Of a DNA stretch of 64,000 nucleotides, positions 52,452 through 60,518 are shown in pieces. The stretch is taken from positions 256,001 to 320,000 of the forward strand of contig CAXXKA010000001.1 in NCBI GenBank assembly GCA_963668625.2, read 5' to 3'. A program made the translations under genes and the position numbers. Below the pieces are notes generated by a model. The model saw nothing but the letters and a program-made list of their open reading frames with translations. It had not been told where the DNA came from and did not search any database. The stretch's first letter is position 1; each line of letters begins with the position of its first letter. Source of the stretch: an uncultured candidate division Zixibacteria bacterium (GTDB taxonomy: Bacteria; Zixibacteria; MSB-5A5; UBA10806; 4484-95).

Positions 52452-54161
52452 ATGAGACTAATACCTTTAATATCACATCAAAACACCGAGATACCGGGCC
52501 GGTTCTACTGGATCGTCTTATCACGGATAATTACCTACGGTTTTTTATTCGCTGCCTCGGCTTTGTTTTTAAGCTCGAACGCCGTACTGTATAAAATTCT
52601 GATTATCTATGGCATACTGGCAATATCGTTGCTTCTATACCTGTTTTTCACCAAAGCCGGTCATAACCTGAGAATACTGAAGGTCGTTATTGCTATACAG
52701 TTGGTTTTCGAATTCGCCATCGAATCGATTCTTATAAACCATGTAGGCGGTAATTTTTCGCCTCTTATTGTCCTGTTTCTTTTATCGATAGTCTCGGCTA
52801 CGCTGGTGTATGGTTTATCCGGTACGATGCTTGCGGCTACTGTCGCCGGGCTTTTTTACGCGGCGCCTATCGTATACGATTTCTCCGGCCTCTTACCGGG
52901 GATACTGGAATCGAATCAACTTGCCCGCATGGGGTTCTCCTCCGATGAGGCATTCTATACGATATTTCTGCATCTGTGCATGTTTTACCTGATAGCGTTC
53001 ATATCCGGCTATGTGGCCGAAAACCAGATATCAGCCTCGAAACAATTGCGGAAAATCAAACTGGAAACCGATGAGATACTGGAGAACATGAGCTCGGGTA
53101 TGGTTACCGTGGATGTTTTCGGACGATTGATCTATTTCAATAAGACGGCGGGCGATATCTTGCAGGTTAATCACAAGCTGGCCAAAGGCGCCTCGTTCAA
53201 ATCGATATTCCTGAAAAAATTTCCCGAGCTTTATTACAAAATCGAGTTGGCTATGTCGACCGGTTACATTGAGCATCGCAGCGAGATTTCGATTACCGTG
53301 GAGAACGAGAAGATACCGCTGGGCATCTCAACCTCGGTGCTGCGGGATGAGAGTAACGAGATTCGCGGCGTAATTACCGTATTCCAGAATTTGAGAGAGT
53401 CCAAGCAGATGGAGAAACGTTTGCGGGATGCCGACCGCCTGGCAACGGTGGGCAAGCTTTCCGCGGGTATCGCCCACGAGATACGAAATCCGCTAGCCTC
53501 GATCTCCGGCTCGGTGGAGGTGCTGAAAACCTCGCTGCAGTTAACCGATGAGCACGATAAAAAGCTTCTGGAGTTAATCTTAAAAGAATCCTCGCGTTTG
53601 AATCATATATTGACCGAGTTCCTCAGTTTCGCGCGTATCAAAAGCAATCCCGAAATCAACACCGAGATTGGACCTGTCATAGATGAGATATTGGTGCTGG
53701 CTAAATCTCATCCCAGTTATAAGGAAAATATTGAGCTCAAATATAATCGCCCTAAAGATCCGGTACGCGGCCGTGGCGGTCCTGACATGTATAAGCAATT
53801 GCTATGGAATCTCATCCTGAACAGTTTCCAGGCCATCGGTGATAATGGCGGCGCGATAATCATTACCTGCAAAAAAGTAATCGAGAAAAACGGCAAGTTC
53901 ACCACCAGACTGTCGTTTAGAGATACCGGCCCCGGAATACCTCCGAATATAAGGGCGAGGATATTCGATCCGTTTTTTTCCACCAAAAGCGATGGCACCG
54001 GGCTGGGCCTGGCGATTGTCAAACGCATTGTCGAATCGCTCGAGGGCAAGATCGAATTCGACACCGATGATGCCGGTACGACTTTCGACATTTTACTGCC
54101 CAACGGTTTCCACACCTCCTCAGGGCAAGAGGCCAAAAAATTGGCCGAGACAGCGAAATAA
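52452..54161 (+). CDS. pilS: PilS-like membrane sensor histidine kinase (TM-PAS-HisKA-HATPase)
   Basis: AHEIRNPL H-box; NL..N, DTGPGI, F.PFFSTK, GTGLGL; follows pilC; ATG at 52452. Confidence 0.82.
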   Translation: MRLIPLISHQNTEIPGRFYWIVLSRIITYGFLFAASALFLSSNAVLYKILIIYGILAISLLLYLFFTKAGHNLRILKVVIAIQLVFEFAIESILINHVGGNFSPLIVLFLLSIVSATLVYGLSGTMLAATVAGLFYAAPIVYDFSGLLPGILESNQLARMGFSSDEAFYTIFLHLCMFYLIAFISGYVAENQISASKQLRKIKLETDEILENMSSGMVTVDVFGRLIYFNKTAGDILQVNHKLAKGASFKSIFLKKFPELYYKIELAMSTGYIEHRSEISITVENEKIPLGISTSVLRDESNEIRGVITVFQNLRESKQMEKRLRDADRLATVGKLSAGIAHEIRNPLASISGSVEVLKTSLQLTDEHDKKLLELILKESSRLNHILTEFLSFARIKSNPEINTEIGPVIDEILVLAKSHPSYKENIELKYNRPKDPVRGRGGPDMYKQLLWNLILNSFQAIGDNGGAIIITCKKVIEKNGKFTTRLSFRDTGPGIPPNIRARIFDPFFSTKSDGTGLGLAIVKRIVESLEGKIEFDTDDAGTTFDILLPNGFHTSSGQEAKKLAETAK

Positions 54162-54278
54162 TAATATTATCATATCACTAACGTCCGGTGTTTTTCGATA
54201 AATTTCATATTCCTCCTTGGAATTGTTAGTGAAAGATATTTTCCGATAAAATTATATATTCAGCGTATCCTGCATCCT

Positions 54279-54397
54279 GACATGCCCTGCCGATGTTAGG
54301 CTTAGTTCCCAGATTCCCAAGCGCTGCTTCGTCATGTTGATGTAAGTGGCGGAATATTAAGTATTTACCAGTGCAGACAAGACTCCAAAGCAGCGCT
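54279..54397. repeat. dispersed structured intergenic repeat (REP/MITE-like), copy 2
   Basis: shares CCTGCCGATGTTAGGCTTAGTTC with 11136-11158; AGCGCTGCTT/AAGCAGCGCT perfect inverted pair. Confidence 0.75.
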
Positions 54398-54527
54398 ATG
54401 GAACCAGGAGGAGGTCTAATCACTCGTGCGATAACCATTTTCAACAACCCTTAAGGTGGAAACCCGGTAAGCCCGTGGAGGGACAACTAACCAATCAGAT
54501 AATTTTTACTTAAGCCATCTTTTTTTC

Positions 54528-54556
54528 TTGACGATTGAACATATGAACAGTATATT
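54528..54556 (+). promoter_or_regulatory. lexA promoter with candidate LexA operator in the spacer
   Basis: TTGACG-N17-TATATT; spacer contains TGAACATATGAACA (54536-54549). Confidence 0.65.
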
Positions 54557-54730
54557 TATTGGCAGATAAGAAATGTTTAGTAGTCGGGGGGTGCCGGTGG
54601 TGGTTTTAAAAGGCGATTTCGTGGCTGGCGGACATCCTCGTTTGCTGGTTATTGGACAATAGCTAAGAAGGTGTTGTGGTCGGCGGATATCCCCGTCAGC
54701 CACTAATAGAATTAACTCAACAAAGGAGGG

Positions 54731-55357
54731 GTGATGAAGGAACTAACTCCCCGTCAAAGAGAGATTTTCGAGTTCATCAAGCAGATGGTCGTGGAGATGG
54801 GCCGTCCGCCCTCGCTGCGTGAGATAGGCGAGAGGTTCGGTATCAACTCGACCAATGGTGTGCGCTCGGTATTGGAGGCGCTGGAGCGTAAGGGGTATAT
54901 CAAGCGCAACCGCTACCTGTCGCGCGGCATCGAGATCGTTAAAGAGGCGCCTGAGCGTATCGAGGAGTCCAACCTGGTGTCGGTACCCTGGGTTGGCCGT
55001 GTCGCGGCCGGTGTACCATTGTGGGCCGAACAGAATATCGAGGGTAATTTTTATATCGATAAATCGTTTGCCACCGGCGAGAACATTTTCGCGCTCAAAG
55101 TGGATGGCTTATCGATGCGTGACGCCGGTATCCTTGATGGCGATTTCGTGCTGGTTCGCCGTCAGCAGATGGCTCAGGCGGGCGATATCGTGGTCGCGCA
55201 GATTGATAACGAGGCGACGGTAAAGCGTTTCTTCCCGGAGAAAAAGCGTATCCGGTTAGAGGCGGAGAACCCCGATTTCGGTCCGATCATCGTAGAGAAG
55301 AACACCCCCGGTTTCATGATAGCCGGCAAGGTGATTGGTTTGATGCGCAAGATGTAG
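54731..55357 (+). CDS. lexA: SOS transcriptional repressor LexA
   Basis: LTPRQ, PPSLREI, L.ALERKGYI, GRVAAG cleavage site, SM (Ser) and ATVK (Lys) dyad. Confidence 0.96.
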   Translation: MMKELTPRQREIFEFIKQMVVEMGRPPSLREIGERFGINSTNGVRSVLEALERKGYIKRNRYLSRGIEIVKEAPERIEESNLVSVPWVGRVAAGVPLWAEQNIEGNFYIDKSFATGENIFALKVDGLSMRDAGILDGDFVLVRRQQMAQAGDIVVAQIDNEATVKRFFPEKKRIRLEAENPDFGPIIVEKNTPGFMIAGKVIGLMRKM

Positions 55358-55474
55358 TAAGCGGTGATGGCAATCGCCGGGTGTGGTAGTGTGGTGTGAT
55401 ATGGTGAGGGGTATAACAAAGCATATTATAATTGATATACAGTATTTGATTTATTGATAATGATAATAATATCC

Positions 55475-55499
55475 CGTAGGGGCGTATCGCATACGCCCC
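55475..55499 (+). repeat. GTAG-type REP element
   Basis: CGTAG then perfect hairpin GGGGCGTAT-CGC-ATACGCCCC. Confidence 0.8.
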
Positions 55500-55529
55500 A
55501 GGCAGAATGATTGAGAGCAGGGGTGAGCT

Positions 55530-56825
55530 ATGTACAACATGCGAATTGATGTTATAAGGAAAGAGTTGGAGAGAAGGTTTAGGGAAGTTGAGAAATTAGA
55601 TGAAAATGATCACACAGAAATCGAAGAAACTGTTAGTAAGTTTTTATATTTTTTGTTGTCGGATCTTCAAATAAGAGATTTTATAATTGGCCTGTCACAT
55701 TTTGATGAAGATTATATTCGTTCTGAAACCTATCAAAATATAATCGGTGAAATTAAAGGTGTCTTGAAAAATATCACTTCGGAACTTATAAAATATAAAT
55801 TTACTGGTAAAAAATTCAAAAATACTTTTAATGAGATTCATAAAGGATTAGGTAATCCTTTCAATTTGCCTAAACCTAATGTCAGGGGTAAATATATTAC
55901 TATTGATAGATATTTAAATGCGCTTAAGAAAATTGATAATTACATTATTGATTATGCAAACGAATTAGATGGGATTATAAGTACCATCAATAAGTTTATT
56001 GATCATGCTGATGATATTAATATGAATTACAATAACAATAACAATAAACTACTTAAACTATTAATGTTGTTGCAGAGCAATAAGGTGAGAATAGATTCAT
56101 ATTTGGATTACAAAGCTGAATATGAATCAGCGAGTTCTCTTTATCAATTGTTACCCTATTTAAAAACATCACATTATTGGTATTTATTAAATCTTGGTAA
56201 GAGTACTTTAGGTGAAAGCATAAAAGTTCGCACTATTTCAAGAAAATCAGAGTTTTCTGTTCAATTATTTTTAATTGATGAATGTCGTCAAGTCTACCAC
56301 GCCGTAGATGAATACCTCCTAACCGGCAAATCCAAAAGCGCTCTCATCGAACGTTTGAAAACCTATTGTATGTGGATCAGGCGAGATGATTTTCCTAAAG
56401 CTAATGCGGAAGGTAAAGAGGATAAAGTATCTAAAATAGTTTCGGAATTTATTTTCAATCAAGGGTATTTTCCTATAGTTAGATTTAGAGCGGGAAAATC
56501 AGAGCCAGATATTTTATATGAACCATCAGGTGTTGTGCATTGGGATAATTCTGTATTAATCGAGCTTAAACAATATATCGGTAAGACATATTCAAAAAAG
56601 CAATTTCAATTAGATGTCGGCCAAGCGCGAGATTATTTATCTATCGTAAAAGGCGTGAAACCTGATATAGGAGATACGGTTTATCTATTGGTCTTTTATG
56701 CCGGGACTAAACGATTCATTTTAGATGAATCATTTTCTGATGATAAGGTACAGGTAGAATTTATTTATGTAGGTGAAGGATCACCCAGCAAATTAAAAGG
56801 AGAGATTATTTACGGTAGTAAATAA
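55530..56825 (+). CDS. AT-rich hypothetical protein with C-terminal PD-(D/E)XK nuclease-like domain
   Basis: E(KED)...EPDIL...LIELKQ...GQARDY motif series; visibly more AT-rich than lexA and dinB. Confidence 0.65.
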   Translation: MYNMRIDVIRKELERRFREVEKLDENDHTEIEETVSKFLYFLLSDLQIRDFIIGLSHFDEDYIRSETYQNIIGEIKGVLKNITSELIKYKFTGKKFKNTFNEIHKGLGNPFNLPKPNVRGKYITIDRYLNALKKIDNYIIDYANELDGIISTINKFIDHADDINMNYNNNNNKLLKLLMLLQSNKVRIDSYLDYKAEYESASSLYQLLPYLKTSHYWYLLNLGKSTLGESIKVRTISRKSEFSVQLFLIDECRQVYHAVDEYLLTGKSKSALIERLKTYCMWIRRDDFPKANAEGKEDKVSKIVSEFIFNQGYFPIVRFRAGKSEPDILYEPSGVVHWDNSVLIELKQYIGKTYSKKQFQLDVGQARDYLSIVKGVKPDIGDTVYLLVFYAGTKRFILDESFSDDKVQVEFIYVGEGSPSKLKGEIIYGSK

Positions 56826-56833
56826 CAACCACC

Positions 56834-56918
56834 CGTAGGGGCAGGTCTAAGACCTGACCGTGAATTACCACCGTGTTATGATGACAGGCAGCGGGTCGAT
56901 CTTAGATCGCCCCCTACG
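56834..56918. repeat. REP doublet (REPIN-like)
   Basis: CGTAGGGGCAGGTCTAAGACCTGACCG (+) facing CGTAGGGGGCGATCTAAGATCGACCCG (-). Confidence 0.85.
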
Positions 56919-56929
56919 AGATATAAATA

Positions 56930-57448
56930 TTGATGGGTAATAAAATGTGCGATAATTCAAAATATCCAAAACGCAAATTCGTTCGTTTGAGGAATTATGA
57001 TTATTCGCAAAACGGAGCGTATTTCATAACTATATGCACTATCGATAAAAAGTATTTAATTGATTCTGATAAGATACGTGCTATCATCCAGGAGACCTGG
57101 GATAATTTACCCAAGCATTATCCTGAGGTAATTTTAGATGAATTCGTCATTATGCCGAATCACATACATGGTATTATAATAATTAATAATAATTTTTATA
57201 ATTTCGTAGGGGCTGGTCTAAGACCTGCCCGCAAACTCTCGGAAATCGTTAAATCATTCAAGTCATTTTCATCAAGAGAGATAAATAAATTACTTAGCAC
57301 CCCCGGCCAATCATTCTGGCAGCGCAATTATTATGAACATGTGATCCGTAATGAACAGGACCTTCATGAGACTCGTACATATATTCGTGAAAACCCTATC
57401 AAATGGGAAATAGATCAATACAACTTAGCACAACATCATCACTCGTAG
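56930..57448 (+). mobile_element. REP-associated tyrosine (Y1/HUH, IS200-like) transposase, RAYT
   Basis: RL..YDYS..GAYFITICT, MPNHIHGI (HUH), FKSFS, WQRNYYEHVIR, YI..NP..W; true start may be 56933 or 56945. Confidence 0.92.
57205..57231 (+). repeat. in-frame REP inside the RAYT gene
   Basis: CGTAGGGGCTGGTCTAAGACCTGCCCG; 25/27 identical to 56834-56860; encodes VGAGLRPAR. Confidence 0.85.
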
Positions 57449-57473
57449 ATTCACGGCATGCCGTGTTCCTACG
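57444..57473. repeat. palindromic GTAG-type REP at the RAYT 3' end
   Basis: CGTAG-att-CACGGCATGCCGTG-ttc-CTACG; supplies the RAYT TAG stop. Confidence 0.75.
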
Positions 57474-57534
57474 ATGTTGCGAGGCATACGATAAATGCAT
57501 TATTAATGCATCGCCCATGTAGGGGGGGCAATAC

Positions 57535-57783
57535 ATGTACCAGGATATCGAAGAACCGATAGATGTTATCGCCGTTTTTGAAAGCGGCACTATGAAACCG
57601 CTCAGGTTTCGCTGGAACGGCCGGGCGATCAAAATCAAACGGATCACCGGCTCGTGGAAATCCGATATGGGGCAGACCAGGCTGCGCTATTTCGCCGTGC
57701 TCGATCATGCCTCCAATTTCTTCCAGCTCGCTTACGATGAGCGAAACACGATCTGGGTGCTCAATAAAATCTGGGTGGAATAG
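57535..57783 (+). CDS. small DUF6504-like protein
   Basis: EPIDV...P..FRWNGR...I...W...FAV....FQL.YD.....W.L pattern; coupled to dinB. Confidence 0.7.
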   Translation: MYQDIEEPIDVIAVFESGTMKPLRFRWNGRAIKIKRITGSWKSDMGQTRLRYFAVLDHASNFFQLAYDERNTIWVLNKIWVE

Positions 57784-57785
57784 CC

Positions 57786-59021
57786 ATGGACCCGCACAAA
57801 AAATTCTGCACTAACGATAGGGGCCGTGAAAAGAATCATGAGCCCGATAAACAGCGTCTGATAATGCATATCGATATGGACGCGTTTTTCGCCTCGATAG
57901 AGATCGCCCACATGCCCTCACTGGAGGGCAAGGCCGTAATTATCGGCGGTGATCCCAACTCGCGTGGCGTGGTTACCACCTGCTCTTACGAGGCGCGCAA
58001 GTTTGGCGTGCATTCGGCCATGTCCTCGTACGAGGCAAAAAAGCGATGTCCGCACGGCATATTCCTGCACAACTCTACCGATAAGTATGGCTATGTCTCG
58101 ATGGAGATCATGAAACTACTGACAGATTTCTCGCCCCAGGTCGAACCGTTCTCGGTCGATGAGGCATTTTTGGATATCACCGAGACAGTCGATCGCTGGG
58201 GCGGCCCCGGCCCGATATCTATCGAGATCAAAAAGCGTATCTGGGATAGCCTGCGGATGACTTGCTCAATCGGCATATCGGCGGTGCGATTCGTGGCCAA
58301 GATGGCCTCGGGGGCGGAAAAACCCGATGGCCTGACTATTGTCGAGCCGGGTAAGGAAAAAGAGTTTCTCTGGCCACAACCGATCGGCAACCTCTGGGGG
58401 GTAGGCCCGAAATCGGCCGAGGCGTTTAACAAAATCGGCGTGTTCACTATCGCTGATCTGGCCAAAGTGCCTAAGCACAAGATGAAAAAATATTTCGGCA
58501 TCGTAGGCGATTCTCTTCGCGATATGGCCAACGGTATCGGTAATAACGAGATTCATTTCACGCATGATGAGTCCGAGGAGAAATCGATGGGGCATGAGCA
58601 TACGTTCGGAGCCAATGTCTCGGATATCGATAAAATACACAGCATGATGCTTCGCCTGTCAGATAAAGTATCCCGTCGTTTGCGAAGCGCCGGCTACGTG
58701 GGCAGGACAGTCACGCTCAAGGTTAAGCATGCAGATGCCCGCCTGAAAACGCGCGCCAACACGTTTAGCCGTCCCACCGACTGCGCCGTCATGATATATA
58801 ACCACGCGGTCAAGCTTCTGCAAAAGCATCGTCTGGCCGAATCGCCGATCCGCCTGGTAGGGGTATCGGTATCCAAACTCAGCCCAAAATCGGAACCGGC
58901 CCAGTGCGATTTACTTGGCAATCCAGATGAGCGTTCCGAGAAAATAGACAGTGTCATTGATACCCTGCGCAATAAGTACGGGGAACAGGCAATCACGTTT
59001 GCCGGTGAACAAATACTATAG
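57786..59021 (+). CDS. dinB: DNA polymerase IV (Y family)
   Basis: HIDMDAFFASIE, SYEARKFGV.SAM, SVDEAFLD, AKMAS..KPDG, IRLVGV. Confidence 0.95.
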   Translation: MDPHKKFCTNDRGREKNHEPDKQRLIMHIDMDAFFASIEIAHMPSLEGKAVIIGGDPNSRGVVTTCSYEARKFGVHSAMSSYEAKKRCPHGIFLHNSTDKYGYVSMEIMKLLTDFSPQVEPFSVDEAFLDITETVDRWGGPGPISIEIKKRIWDSLRMTCSIGISAVRFVAKMASGAEKPDGLTIVEPGKEKEFLWPQPIGNLWGVGPKSAEAFNKIGVFTIADLAKVPKHKMKKYFGIVGDSLRDMANGIGNNEIHFTHDESEEKSMGHEHTFGANVSDIDKIHSMMLRLSDKVSRRLRSAGYVGRTVTLKVKHADARLKTRANTFSRPTDCAVMIYNHAVKLLQKHRLAESPIRLVGVSVSKLSPKSEPAQCDLLGNPDERSEKIDSVIDTLRNKYGEQAITFAGEQIL

Positions 59022-59201
59022 TAGCCATAATGTAACATTCGATTACCTCTAATTTTTAAGCAGAACGAGTATTATCATAATTAATTAACTTAACATTAAT
59101 GTCCTTTGATGTTCATTTTTTGTCATATTTAACTTGCATCCACAGGTTTTTGTATTATTTTCACTATTTGCCGCCTTGGGGGCTAGCGGTGGAGTATTGC
59201 T

Positions 59202-60518
59202 ATGTTTGATCAGTTAACTGAAAGACTTGACTCGGTTTTTAAGAAAATCACCGGCCGAGGTGTGCTTAACGAGAAAGATGTTAAAGCCGCCATGAAAGAG
59301 GTCCGGATGGCTTTACTTGAGGCCGATGTTAACTATAAGGTAGCCAAGAATTTTATCGCCAATGTCCAGGAGCGAGCTGTTGGCCACGAGGTAACCAGTT
59401 CCATTAAACCCGGCCAGCAAGTGGTTAAGATCGTCAATGACGAGTTAGTCAAGCTTCTGGGACAACAAAACGCGCCTTTGAATTCGGCCCCACAGCCGCC
59501 AACTATTGTTATGATGGTTGGTCTTCATGGTTGCGGCAAGACGACACTTTCAGGTAAACTTTCCAAATTATTCAAAAAACGCGGCAAGCACCCTCTACTT
59601 GTAGCCGCGGACATTCATCGCCCGGCGGCCAAAAAGCAGTTGGAGATTCTGGCAAAATCACTTGATATGCCGTTCTTCACCAGCGAATCCAGCGCCCCGG
59701 ACATTTGCACGGAGTCGATCAAGTATGCCAGGGAGAAGCTCTACGATCTGGTCATACTCGATACCGCAGGCCGCCTGCAAATTGATGATGAACTGATGGC
59801 TGAGTTGGAGAGTATAAAAAAGAAAGTGAATCCCACAGAGGTATTATTCGTTGCCGATTCCATGACCGGTCAGGAGGCTGTCAATGTAGCCAAAGCGTTT
59901 CACGAACGTATCGAGGTTACGGGTGTGGCGCTTACCAAGCTGGATGGTGATGCCAGGGGCGGCGCGGCGCTGTCTATCAAATCGGTGCTGGATGTGCCGG
60001 TGAAATTCATCGGTGTGGGTGAGAAACTCGATGCTATCGAGGAGTTCCATCCCGACCGTATGGCCTCGCGAATTCTTGGTATGGGGGATGTCGTAACGCT
60101 GGTTGAGAAAGCTCAAGCGGCGGTCGATCTTGATAAAGCCAAAAAATTAGAGGAGAAACTCAAAAAGTCCGAGTTTACTTTCGAAGATTTTTTGGATCAG
60201 TTAAAACAGGTGAAGAAGATGGGACCTTTGGAATCGCTTCTCGAGATGATACCGGGCGCCGGCGGAAAGCTTAAGGGCCTTAAGGTTGACGATAAGGCGT
60301 TGCCCAGGATAGAGGCGATTATCAGTTCTATGACCACCGAGGAAAGACGCAAGCCGCAAATCATAAACGGCTCTCGCCGCAAGCGAATTGCCCGCGGCAG
60401 CGGAACTTCCGTGCATGATGTCAACGTTTTATTAAAGCAGTTCACACAAATGCAAAAGATGGTCAAGAAGATGTCGAAGTTTAATTTCAAAGGTTTTCCA
60501 CAGGGATTCCCGATATAA
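59202..60518 (+). CDS. ffh: signal recognition particle protein
   Basis: ALLEADV, G.GKTT, DTAGR, TKLDGDARGG, M-domain SRRKRIARGSG. Confidence 0.97.
   Translation: MFDQLTERLDSVFKKITGRGVLNEKDVKAAMKEVRMALLEADVNYKVAKNFIANVQERAVGHEVTSSIKPGQQVVKIVNDELVKLLGQQNAPLNSAPQPPTIVMMVGLHGCGKTTLSGKLSKLFKKRGKHPLLVAADIHRPAAKKQLEILAKSLDMPFFTSESSAPDICTESIKYAREKLYDLVILDTAGRLQIDDELMAELESIKKKVNPTEVLFVADSMTGQEAVNVAKAFHERIEVTGVALTKLDGDARGGAALSIKSVLDVPVKFIGVGEKLDAIEEFHPDRMASRILGMGDVVTLVEKAQAAVDLDKAKKLEEKLKKSEFTFEDFLDQLKQVKKMGPLESLLEMIPGAGGKLKGLKVDDKALPRIEAIISSMTTEERRKPQIINGSRRKRIARGSGTSVHDVNVLLKQFTQMQKMVKKMSKFNFKGFPQGFPI

Follow-up and report, generated by a model that had tools for sequence, protein, structure and literature searches.

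The AT-rich DNA, about 2 kb long, that lies between lexA and a DUF6504-like gene followed by dinB carries a nuclease-like gene, a RAYT transposase gene and several REP hairpins, and it raises the question of how such DNA came to sit inside a presumed SOS operon. An earlier note on the window (the whole stretch of 64,000 nucleotides analysed) had proposed that a REP-bounded RAYT unit captured the nuclease and landed there as a whole.

Gene content and SOS control

The identities given previously to lexA, the nuclease-like gene, the RAYT gene, the DUF6504-like gene and dinB were all confirmed, as was their common forward orientation. The following features are used below.

54528-54556, +, sigma-70-type promoter of lexA, TTGACG-17-TATATT (10/12 consensus positions)
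54535-54550, no strand assigned, probable LexA operator in the promoter spacer, an imperfect palindrome of the type CTGnACAnnTGTnCAG
54734-55357, +, lexA (TIGR00498, 219 bits; PF01726 and PF00717)
55362-55379, +, short hairpin 3' of lexA with no U-tract (-10.4 kcal/mol)
55476-55498, +, GTAG REP of subfamily A (genome-wide, 11 pattern matches)
55530-56825, +, ORF431, swappable cargo encoding 431 aa, with a helical N-terminal region and a C-terminal PD-(D/E)XK nuclease domain
56835-56917, no strand assigned, REPIN made up of two GTAG REPs of subfamily B in inverted orientation (genome-wide, 14 pattern matches)
56933-57448, +, RAYT/TnpA-REP, subclass 2.4 (NF047646, 81.1 bits, cut-off 80; PF01797)
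57206-57230, +, REP lying in frame in the RAYT gene, with the HUH motif on one side and the Tyr motif on the other (overlooked in the earlier note)
57444-57473, no strand assigned, double-foot REP (GTAG...CTAC) of subfamily C, decayed (genome-wide, 5 pattern matches)
57535-57783, +, DUF6504-like protein of 82 aa, the fixed right anchor of the slot (23.9 bits, just below the cut-off of 24.2)
57786-59021, +, dinB, DNA polymerase IV (NF002677, 338 bits, cut-off 256; PF00817)

The insert is AT-rich as described before, with a GC content of 0.26-0.39 against about 0.45 genome-wide. The DUF6504 label is common to the ten best Atlas matches having a family, and the protein is present in 149 of 285 phylum genomes. 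The same order of lexA, a beta-rich protein of 80 aa and an active DinB-type polymerase is described for the operon lexA-imuB-C-polY in Geobacter sulfurreducens in PMC3765255 and PMC6511836, where the operon is reported to be damage-induced and transcribed as one unit (Jara 2003, as cited there). The DUF6504-like protein is likened to GSU0042 of that operon by its size, context and C-terminal Trp, and on these grounds is probably a standalone ImuB-C domain; the difference is that a variable slot with a RAYT and cargo here separates lexA from the small gene.

The -35/spacer/-10 block upstream of lexA is found again throughout the host's order, and the palindrome in it was found upstream of lexA in 22 listed loci. 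Related palindromes precede recA, a UvrA-like gene, a second dinB and a DEAD/DEAH helicase gene in the source genome, and the best-scoring genome match precedes no recognised SOS gene. The palindrome is likely to be a LexA operator. The hairpin already noticed at about 55362-55379 folds and lacks a U-tract, and no terminator was found between lexA and the cargo. A placement of the insert under the LexA promoter would accord with the likely operator and with the lack of a terminator after lexA. A candidate internal promoter in AT-rich DNA (55432-55461, 10/12 match) might drive the cargo separately; 10-of-12 sites of this kind number 22, where 13.7 would be expected for AT-rich DNA, and none of 11 lexA-nuclease spacers has a match to a stricter promoter pattern. 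Rfam gave no match in 53500-59300. In one DNA run, which may be the source sample, a single contig covered 54219-59820 with zero differences; the few joints in this run, which lie at repeats and have sides of less than 30 letters, were not interpreted as excision.

Occupancy of the slot in the phylum

Comparison of loci shows a conserved lexA-DUF6504-dinB arrangement that had a short spacer ancestrally and is predicted to be an operon. Of 116 loci outside the host's order, 100 have lexA upstream of DUF6504; of 81 lexA-linked loci in other families, 77 have a slot that is short, at no more than 500 bp. None of 92 loci of other families has a RAYT in the slot, although 50 of the 51 genomes tested carry RAYTs elsewhere. 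In the host's order, 20 genomes could be evaluated, and by a hand tally 16 of them have a whole or partial RAYT in the slot. Because the remaining four, like most of the phylum, have a slot without RAYT, the RAYT is dispensable. The comparison of lexA-dinB loci proposed in the earlier note revealed both empty sites and variable cargo, and its view of the insert as a secondary addition holds, the insert not being fixed.

A RAYT is also present in the slot in 9 of 19 lexA-linked loci of a further family (f16), which is not sister to the host's order on the lexA tree (p-AU 0.006). A single clade of slot RAYTs was rejected (p-AU 5e-103), as was one for f16 alone (0.0016) and for the host's order alone (0.0012); at least five unrelated RAYT lineages occupy the slot, all co-oriented. 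These tests show that two non-sister lineages filled the slot and that unrelated RAYTs took one another's place there.

The nuclease-like protein

Five residues of the 431-aa protein (E297, D327, E345, K347 and Q365) are invariant across 36 homologues. In its predicted structure (model pLDDT 88), residues about 296-417 match AF1548, XisH and EndoMS/NucS with Z of 7.6-9.1. The core fold and the E...PD...ExK motif are common, over about 105 residues, to AF1548 (1y88), XisH (2okf), EndoMS/NucS (5gke), McrC and NucC; unlike these, the protein adds a helical N-terminal region of about 280 residues that has no clear match and no family assignment. The fold as modelled and the conserved E, PD and ExK residues support membership in the PD-(D/E)XK superfamily, and the earlier designation as PD-(D/E)XK-like is well backed.

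Searches of Pfam, NCBIfam and PADLOC gave no match for the protein itself. PADLOC over 11 homologues gave one weak match (E 0.002), and single members among the 36 homologues matched PDDEXK_9, NERD or BrxB weakly. The best hit of a PDB sequence search was XisH (E 0.002), and Foldseek gave no match to the nuclease at E of 0.001 or less in the PDB and viral sets. A second copy was not found in the source genome, nor a relative among 126 candidates from viral contigs. All close homologues with visible neighbours adjoin lexA and/or RAYT-DUF6504; the nuclease is at the slot in 8 of 285 phylum genomes (two families) and in 7 distinct metagenome loci. A distant homologue (L400) lies in what we take, by recognition of the genes, to be a menaquinone-type biosynthesis operon; neither lexA nor a RAYT is among its listed neighbouring ORFs.

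Both slot genes show purifying selection; for the nuclease, dN/dS is 0.08-0.21 in homologue pairs, and identity between close relatives is about 35-50%. Since no methyltransferase is present in the slot and the sole PF01555 match is far off, a type II restriction-modification pair is unlikely. Most likely, the nuclease would be a stand-alone stress-induced defence effector whose diversity is kept by replacement.

Turnover of the cargo

The slot holds the 431-aa nuclease, an HNH or DUF559 protein, a PADLOC candidate, or no cargo. Nuclease- or defence-like alternatives are HNH_5 (three cases), DUF559 (two) and PDC-S39-like proteins (two), a full-length relative of the last matching the PADLOC candidate PDC-S39 at E 4e-47; Sel1, SnoaL and DUF5677 proteins are slot cargo that is not nuclease-like.

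The lexA tree and the DUF+dinB tree agree with taxonomy. The nuclease tree, from which four partial rows (<240 aa) were excluded and L062 was removed as a duplicate of G006, rejects three host pairs (AU p of 0.002 or less), pointing to in-place allele swaps between genera; the pairs were defined by the lexA and DUF+dinB trees and picked after the nuclease tree had been seen. Purely vertical inheritance of the nuclease is rejected by these comparisons. Between G011 and L061, dS is 0.35 for the nuclease and 0.98 for lexA, and in this best-mapped swap both breakpoints lie within the nuclease gene, as does the break of a deletion in G012/G016. One genome (G010) has lost the nuclease and the 5' half of the RAYT exactly between two identical REPs, and in another (G013) a different cargo joins the RAYT at the REPIN. 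Among the 13 filled slots of f16, 5 have clearly matching direct repeats on both sides, which score 22-73 where the shuffled maxima were 11-12. By all these comparisons the flanking genes descend vertically while nuclease-type cargo is swapped, replaced and lost, and the nuclease and RAYT are exchanged independently of each other. No claim of vertical descent is made for the RAYT, because its tree within subclass 2.4 is mostly without resolution.

The RAYT gene and the REP hairpins

The Y1 HUH transposase reported earlier is a RAYT of subclass 2.4, as identified from its motifs (NHIH at aa 76, WQ at aa 129, YIRENP at aa 150), the in-frame REP, and the long and double-foot REPs nearby. Its Tyr motif is one residue away from the YIxNNP consensus. 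The NH[IFV]H, WQ and YIxxNP motifs of the REPtron/subclass 2.4 (Quentin et al. 2018, PMC6006769; Bertels RAYT group 4, PMC5581495) match here, as do long GTAG REPs with a G-C foot, a double-foot REP and a flanking REPIN; PMC6006769 gives as the hallmark of the subclass a REP that lies in frame, the HUH and Tyr motifs being to either side of it. What differs from the REPtrons described in the parts of these two reports available is the fixed lexA-operon site, the variable nuclease cargo and the replacement by other RAYT groups.

The genome has 87 GTAG hairpins against 14 in one mononucleotide shuffle. The REPs of the REPIN are 93% alike to the REP within the RAYT gene, and this subfamily B is dispersed (14 pattern matches), as for a REPtron. 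The RAYT stop codon overlaps the GTAG of the REP at 57444, which is decayed and has no blastn match elsewhere at E 0.05. The hairpins that the earlier note placed at the start, middle and end of the insert are real, but a REP-bounded insert was not confirmed: they belong to three subfamilies, and the outer two (55476 and 57444) resemble each other no better than shuffled sequence does, with a local score of 7 where shuffling gave up to 11. REP-like repeats are also found in the lexA leader, beyond the supposed cassette, and a REP is missing at 2 of 11 visible lexA-nuclease junctions (G005, G009).

Neither matching end repeats nor the same unit at other sites, the marks of a composite transposon, were found for this insert. 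With the outer REPs unmatched, the REP families dispersed and the nuclease found at one site only, the insert does not look like one mobile cassette; capture and landing in one piece likewise finds no support, given the missing REPs, the separate exchange of the nuclease and RAYT, and the breaks inside the nuclease gene.

Interpretation of the slot

We hold with moderate confidence that the insert is the current filling of an old variable slot within a LexA-repressed lexA-DUF6504-dinB operon, which would form an SOS-transcribed replacement hot spot, probably defensive. DNA damage would cause LexA cleavage and one read-through transcript for the nuclease, RAYT, DUF6504 and Pol IV, and the promoterless RAYT would be made when single-stranded DNA, its substrate, is plentiful. 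The RAYT may seed and reshuffle REPs around its own gene. Most cargo exchange would be homologous recombination between conserved anchors. On the left these would be lexA or the nuclease's first codons, and on the right the tail of the nuclease, the REPIN, the 3' end of the RAYT or DUF6504. Some deletions and replacements could also make use of REPs, either as additional short stretches of homology or as sites nicked by the RAYT. This reading has against it that the RAYT is dispensable, that the distant homologue L400 lies in another kind of operon, that the nuclease has no PADLOC match, that the candidate promoter at 55432-55461 could drive the cargo separately, and that part of the cargo is not nuclease-like.

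A generic tolerant hot spot, in which promoterless RAYTs and AT-rich genes persist wherever a co-oriented transcript and REPs are given, the lexA-DUF6504 gap having been hit twice and the SOS link being incidental, is somewhat unlikely. RAYTs are abundant in the phylum (0-13 per genome), several other RAYT loci of the source genome also follow an AT-rich gene, and AT-rich ORFs border 15 of 52 REP-holding gaps against 239 of 1857 other gaps (p 0.003), all as this explanation would have it. So are two observations that count against the preferred reading: most RAYTs outside the slot (97 of 145, by crude ORF calls) share the orientation of the gene upstream, a general bias, and read-through expression of RAYTs has been proposed in PMC3733652 as a general feature; and other conserved sites recur as RAYT neighbours across families, in 4 genomes each, so that hot spots are not unique to lexA. 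These neighbours, named by recognition, are presumably MoxR-like, rfaE-like, urocanate hydratase-like and carboxyltransferase-like genes. However, among 173 RAYT loci of 30 genomes, 25 of which were drawn from slot-bearing families, no site recurs nearly as often as the lexA slot, with DUF6504 a neighbour in 17 genomes and the next unrelated neighbours in 4; the slot was refilled by at least five lineages, and a screen of sequence upstream of lexA, about 330 kb in all, found no RAYT.

Integrons have a LexA-controlled integrase that acts on folded single-stranded attC sites. The slot resembles them in its SOS promoter, single-strand hairpin chemistry and variable defence-like genes at a fixed platform. 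It differs in having no tyrosine recombinase (no IntI among the five operon genes, all otherwise identified), attI/attC or array, in holding one or two cargo genes, and in several breakpoints inside genes. That RAYTs are kept as SOS-inducible single-strand recombinases, with REP hairpins used to exchange or delete the neighbouring defence nuclease, would make the slot an HUH-based integron analogue, of independent origin in two lineages and open to RAYTs of any group; we regard this as distinctly unlikely.

Still less probable is a widened form of the earlier model, an SOS-inducible gene-exchange platform at which the RAYT would catalyse excision and insertion of REP-bounded cassettes. The REP-to-REP loss in G010, the G013 junction at the REPIN and the bracketed f16 slots fit it, as does the cleavage and strand transfer by TnpA-REP near REPs in vitro described in the available part of PMC8266576. 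Deletions between direct repeats, however, require no RAYT, and the unmatched outer REPs, the breaks inside the nuclease gene and the failure to find the nuclease either at another site or among viral contigs speak against it. Very improbable is a role for the nuclease in DNA repair, as a structure-specific accessory to the Pol IV operon, in place of one in defence: the best fold matches include EndoMS/NucS, Bax1 and XisH and the placement in the SOS operon is stable in 8 genomes of two families, but the Z-scores tie with those of restriction enzymes and defence nucleases, and the low identity, intergenus swaps, frequent loss and unrelated replacements are rare for repair genes.

Significance and related systems

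Why bacteria keep RAYT genes, and when these are expressed, is called an open question in the accessible parts of 10.1101/2021.07.10.451892 and 10.1101/2024.07.17.603846. With unrelated RAYTs having been placed time and again under a LexA promoter, their expression would be expected to be induced by DNA damage, in keeping with the single-strand chemistry they perform. The slot may also help to find new genes of nuclease type, possibly directed against phages, the 431-aa family among them. Even with an incidental SOS link, it would remain a replacement hot spot that is well mapped and lies within a core operon. No description of RAYTs in lexA operons was found in the literature searched, whose supplements might contain such neighbourhoods. 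A similar case is TnpA-REP by prochlorosin genes (bioRxiv 10.1101/2020.03.09.984088), where RAYTs likewise adjoin hypervariable cargo and diversifying recombination was proposed, the cause being left unresolved by the authors; as far as the available part of that report goes, the prochlorosin case differs in its subclass (2.1), many loci, peptide cargo and absence of a LexA link.

Organization of the lexA locus

The gene set claimed for this DNA, namely lexA, a 431-aa nuclease-like orphan, a RAYT (TnpA-REP) gene, a DUF6504-like gene and dinB, is present with all five genes co-oriented, and the insert between lexA and the DUF6504-like gene (hereafter the slot) is AT-rich as described (GC of 0.31 and 0.35 for its two genes versus a median ORF GC of 0.47). 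The following features have been located:

54528-54556, sigma-70 promoter of lexA, enclosing an imperfect palindrome
55476, GTAG hairpin
55530-56825, 431-aa orphan
56835/56917, GTAG hairpins
56933-57448, RAYT gene
57206, GTAG hairpin, in frame within the RAYT
57444, GTAG hairpin

The REPs thought to bound the insert are there, but the two outer ones are no matched pair by sequence. Since, in addition, the hairpins belong to three different subfamilies (11, 14 and 5 pattern matches over the 4.3-Mb genome), the REPs do not mark off a unit by sequence. In this genome, AT-rich ORFs are commoner at gaps holding REPs (15/52) than at other gaps (239/1857). Four further loci (C1:535368-537111, C8:101123-103234, C1:579776-581138 and C4:156559-159260) have an AT-rich gene next to a RAYT or flanked by REPINs, and direct GTAG repeats bracket one of them.

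The window RAYT fits TnpA-REP subclass 2.4 by its motifs, in-frame REP and double-foot REP, which are traits of this subclass in PMC6006769; it is the sole such member among nine RAYT-family genes of the genome. Further RAYT/REP sources were drawn on (PMC5581495, PMC3733652, PMC8266576, 10.1101/2021.07.10.451892, 10.1101/2024.07.17.603846). [quoted passage not shown]

For the orphan, 58 relatives were found at E 0.001 or better, and E297, D327, E345, K347 and Q365 are invariant in an alignment of 36 homologues. In its predicted model (pLDDT 88), the N-terminal region is helical and the C-terminal domain aligns with PD-(D/E)XK proteins (Z 7.6-9.1, rmsd about 3, 100-124 residues); these tied matches point to no particular function. 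One distant homologue belongs to an uncultured Chlorobiaceae genome, where it is part of a biosynthetic operon; since neither lexA nor a RAYT is among the ORFs listed at that locus, the nuclease family is not tied to SOS.

Operator sites and read-through

The promoter palindrome precedes lexA in 22 listed loci (profile consensus CTGAACATATGTTCAG), and 42 sites in the genome reach at least 11 bits on its profile. Promoter-located sites among these include one before a second dinB, itself followed by a dnaE2-like gene, and others before genes for a UvrA-like protein and a DEAD/DEAH helicase; apart from dinB, these genes are named by recognition. The majority of the 42 sites, the top scorer included, precede no recognised SOS gene. 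A 13-of-16 operator-like site 62 bases before the start of recA was spotted by reading and is absent from the 42-site list. At C8:1100698, a perfect operator palindrome lies before a 15-codon ORF, divergent from an excisionase-like HTH gene, with no recognised SOS gene adjoining, and an operator-like site at C1:62304 precedes the gene of a 207-aa protein, which we take to resemble a SocA/Panacea-type antitoxin.

No terminator follows lexA, and 10 of 11 lexA-nuclease spacers have no run of five T. Because the lexA promoter also holds the palindrome, the slot is likely transcribed by read-through under LexA control, as judged from sequence.

Slot contents within the order and across the phylum

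The order of the host was sampled with 24 genomes, of which 20 were evaluable by hand tally; five loci are split across two contigs. Both the empty sites and the variable cargo sought in relatives were found. The slot is empty in four of the 20 genomes and holds a RAYT, whole or partial, in the other 16. An intact nuclease is present in eight, the only ones among 285 phylum genomes to have it, and is reduced to a 5' stub in G012 and G016. Other cargo takes its place in three genomes: DUF7380-DUF4209 in G007 and G015, a full-length relative of which matches PADLOC candidate PDC-S39, and a 517-aa orphan in G013. In seven distinct metagenome loci, the nuclease adjoins lexA and/or a RAYT in every case. 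No REP lies between lexA and the nuclease in G005 and G009. For non-saturated pairs only, dN/dS is 0.08-0.21 for the nuclease and 0.12-0.19 for the RAYT.

In G013 (loci L052 and L102), lexA breaks off near codon 79 and is separated by 1.86 Mb from the RAYT-DUF6504-dinB part, which lies behind an orphan gene; this interruption is either a rearrangement or an assembly break. In L063 and L067, a full RAYT is followed by a second, 3'-half RAYT beginning near a REP, which is a partial duplication at the internal REP.

Outside the order, 116 loci were surveyed from 115 of 128 DUF6504-positive genomes. One family there, f16, has filled slots: a RAYT precedes DUF6504 in 9/19 lexA-linked loci (12/24 of all), co-oriented every time, and the cargo includes HNH_5 (3), DUF559 (2) and DUF5677 (2, of which one falls below cut-off) as well as Sel1 and SnoaL-like genes. 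Clear direct repeats bracket 5 of 13 filled f16 slots. In the 92 remaining loci there is no RAYT in the slot; lexA is linked in 81, with a lexA-DUF6504 spacer of 500 bp or less in 77 (median 143). In a single-gene tree f16 is not sister to the window's order, and the slot RAYTs form at least five lineages (subclass 2.4, the G002 lineage and three from f16) and not one clade.

In f16 (e.g., L163 and L146), a conserved ORF of some 28 codons with a hydrophobic product overlaps the lexA stop codon; it lies directly 3' of lexA in 17/18 loci, slot filled or empty, and is possibly a small SOS membrane peptide. In family f12, both of the genomes examined (loci L060 and L233) encode a 622-aa membrane/TPR protein in the lexA-DUF6504 interval.

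Exchange of nuclease alleles in place

The lexA and DUF6504+DinB trees track families and genera, and the nuclease tree does not. The latter rejects G011+L064, G006+G009 and L061+G020 (p-AU 0.002, 0.002 and 8e-6, respectively; pairs picked after the nuclease tree was seen). LexA and the nuclease of G011 are 97% and 48% identical, respectively, to those of L064, and 80% and 89% to those of L061. The foreign tract of L061 starts about 15-30 codons into the nuclease gene, ends in its last codons and is flanked on both sides by G020-like DNA. These breakpoints inside the gene indicate allele replacement and not REP-to-REP movement. With this intragenic swap and the unpaired outer REPs, the proposal of the earlier note that a RAYT/REP unit and the nuclease landed as one cassette is unsupported.

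Interpretation

The slot is fixed, has been filled twice independently, and has undergone RAYT replacement and cargo swapping, and its nuclease and RAYT genes are under purifying selection; the placement of a RAYT and nuclease-type cargo under a LexA promoter is real, repeated and independent. We lean somewhat towards a joint reading of these results: DNA damage would induce a read-through transcript from which cargo and RAYT are expressed, recombination between the conserved anchors would swap the cargo with REPs as occasional junctions, and the nuclease would act as a defence effector.

That the slot is an incidental hot spot is rather unlikely, at about half the weight we give to that joint reading. 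RAYTs occur in 50/51 tested genomes (0-13 per genome), which agrees with an incidental origin and also means that empty slots do not come from want of RAYTs. Non-slot RAYTs are co-oriented with the upstream gene in 97/145, versus 14/18 for slot loci by the same crude method. Among at least 173 RAYT loci in 30 genomes (25 of them from slot-bearing families), other genes recur beside RAYTs, so that further hot spots exist. However, among the RAYT loci listed, DUF6504 adjoins the RAYT in 17 genomes versus 4 for the next unrelated genes. A platform on which RAYTs themselves drive cassettes is improbable: in G010 the post-lexA REP is fused to an identical REP within the RAYT gene, and the alternative cargo of G013 joins the RAYT at the REPIN, as such a platform would give, but the L061 tract breaks within the nuclease gene. 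A role of the nuclease in repair seems more improbable still.

Integron integrases are under SOS control. The component parts here are known already, and their arrangement is a new variant; searches of literature listings found no description of RAYTs in lexA operons. RAYTs under a LexA promoter would allow the timing of RAYT action to be tested directly. RAYTs are also reported to adjoin variable prochlorosin genes, the cause being left unsettled (10.1101/2020.03.09.984088).

Other repeats near lexA

Positions 54172-54330 belong to a dispersed repeat, which may be a MITE or a structured RNA. The genome has 86 near-full copies of it, which resemble the one in the window at about 85%, and 83 of them lie outside long ORFs. 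Its left end is sharp, other copies extend further, and it has no match in Rfam; similar sequence is frequent on other contigs of one compared DNA run. An inverted repeat of another family occupies 54309-54408, and its copies also flank a RAYT at C4:43954-44487. Within the 180-base lexA leader, two GTGG-type REP-like repeats lie at 54615-54705, with 16 more blastn matches in the genome.
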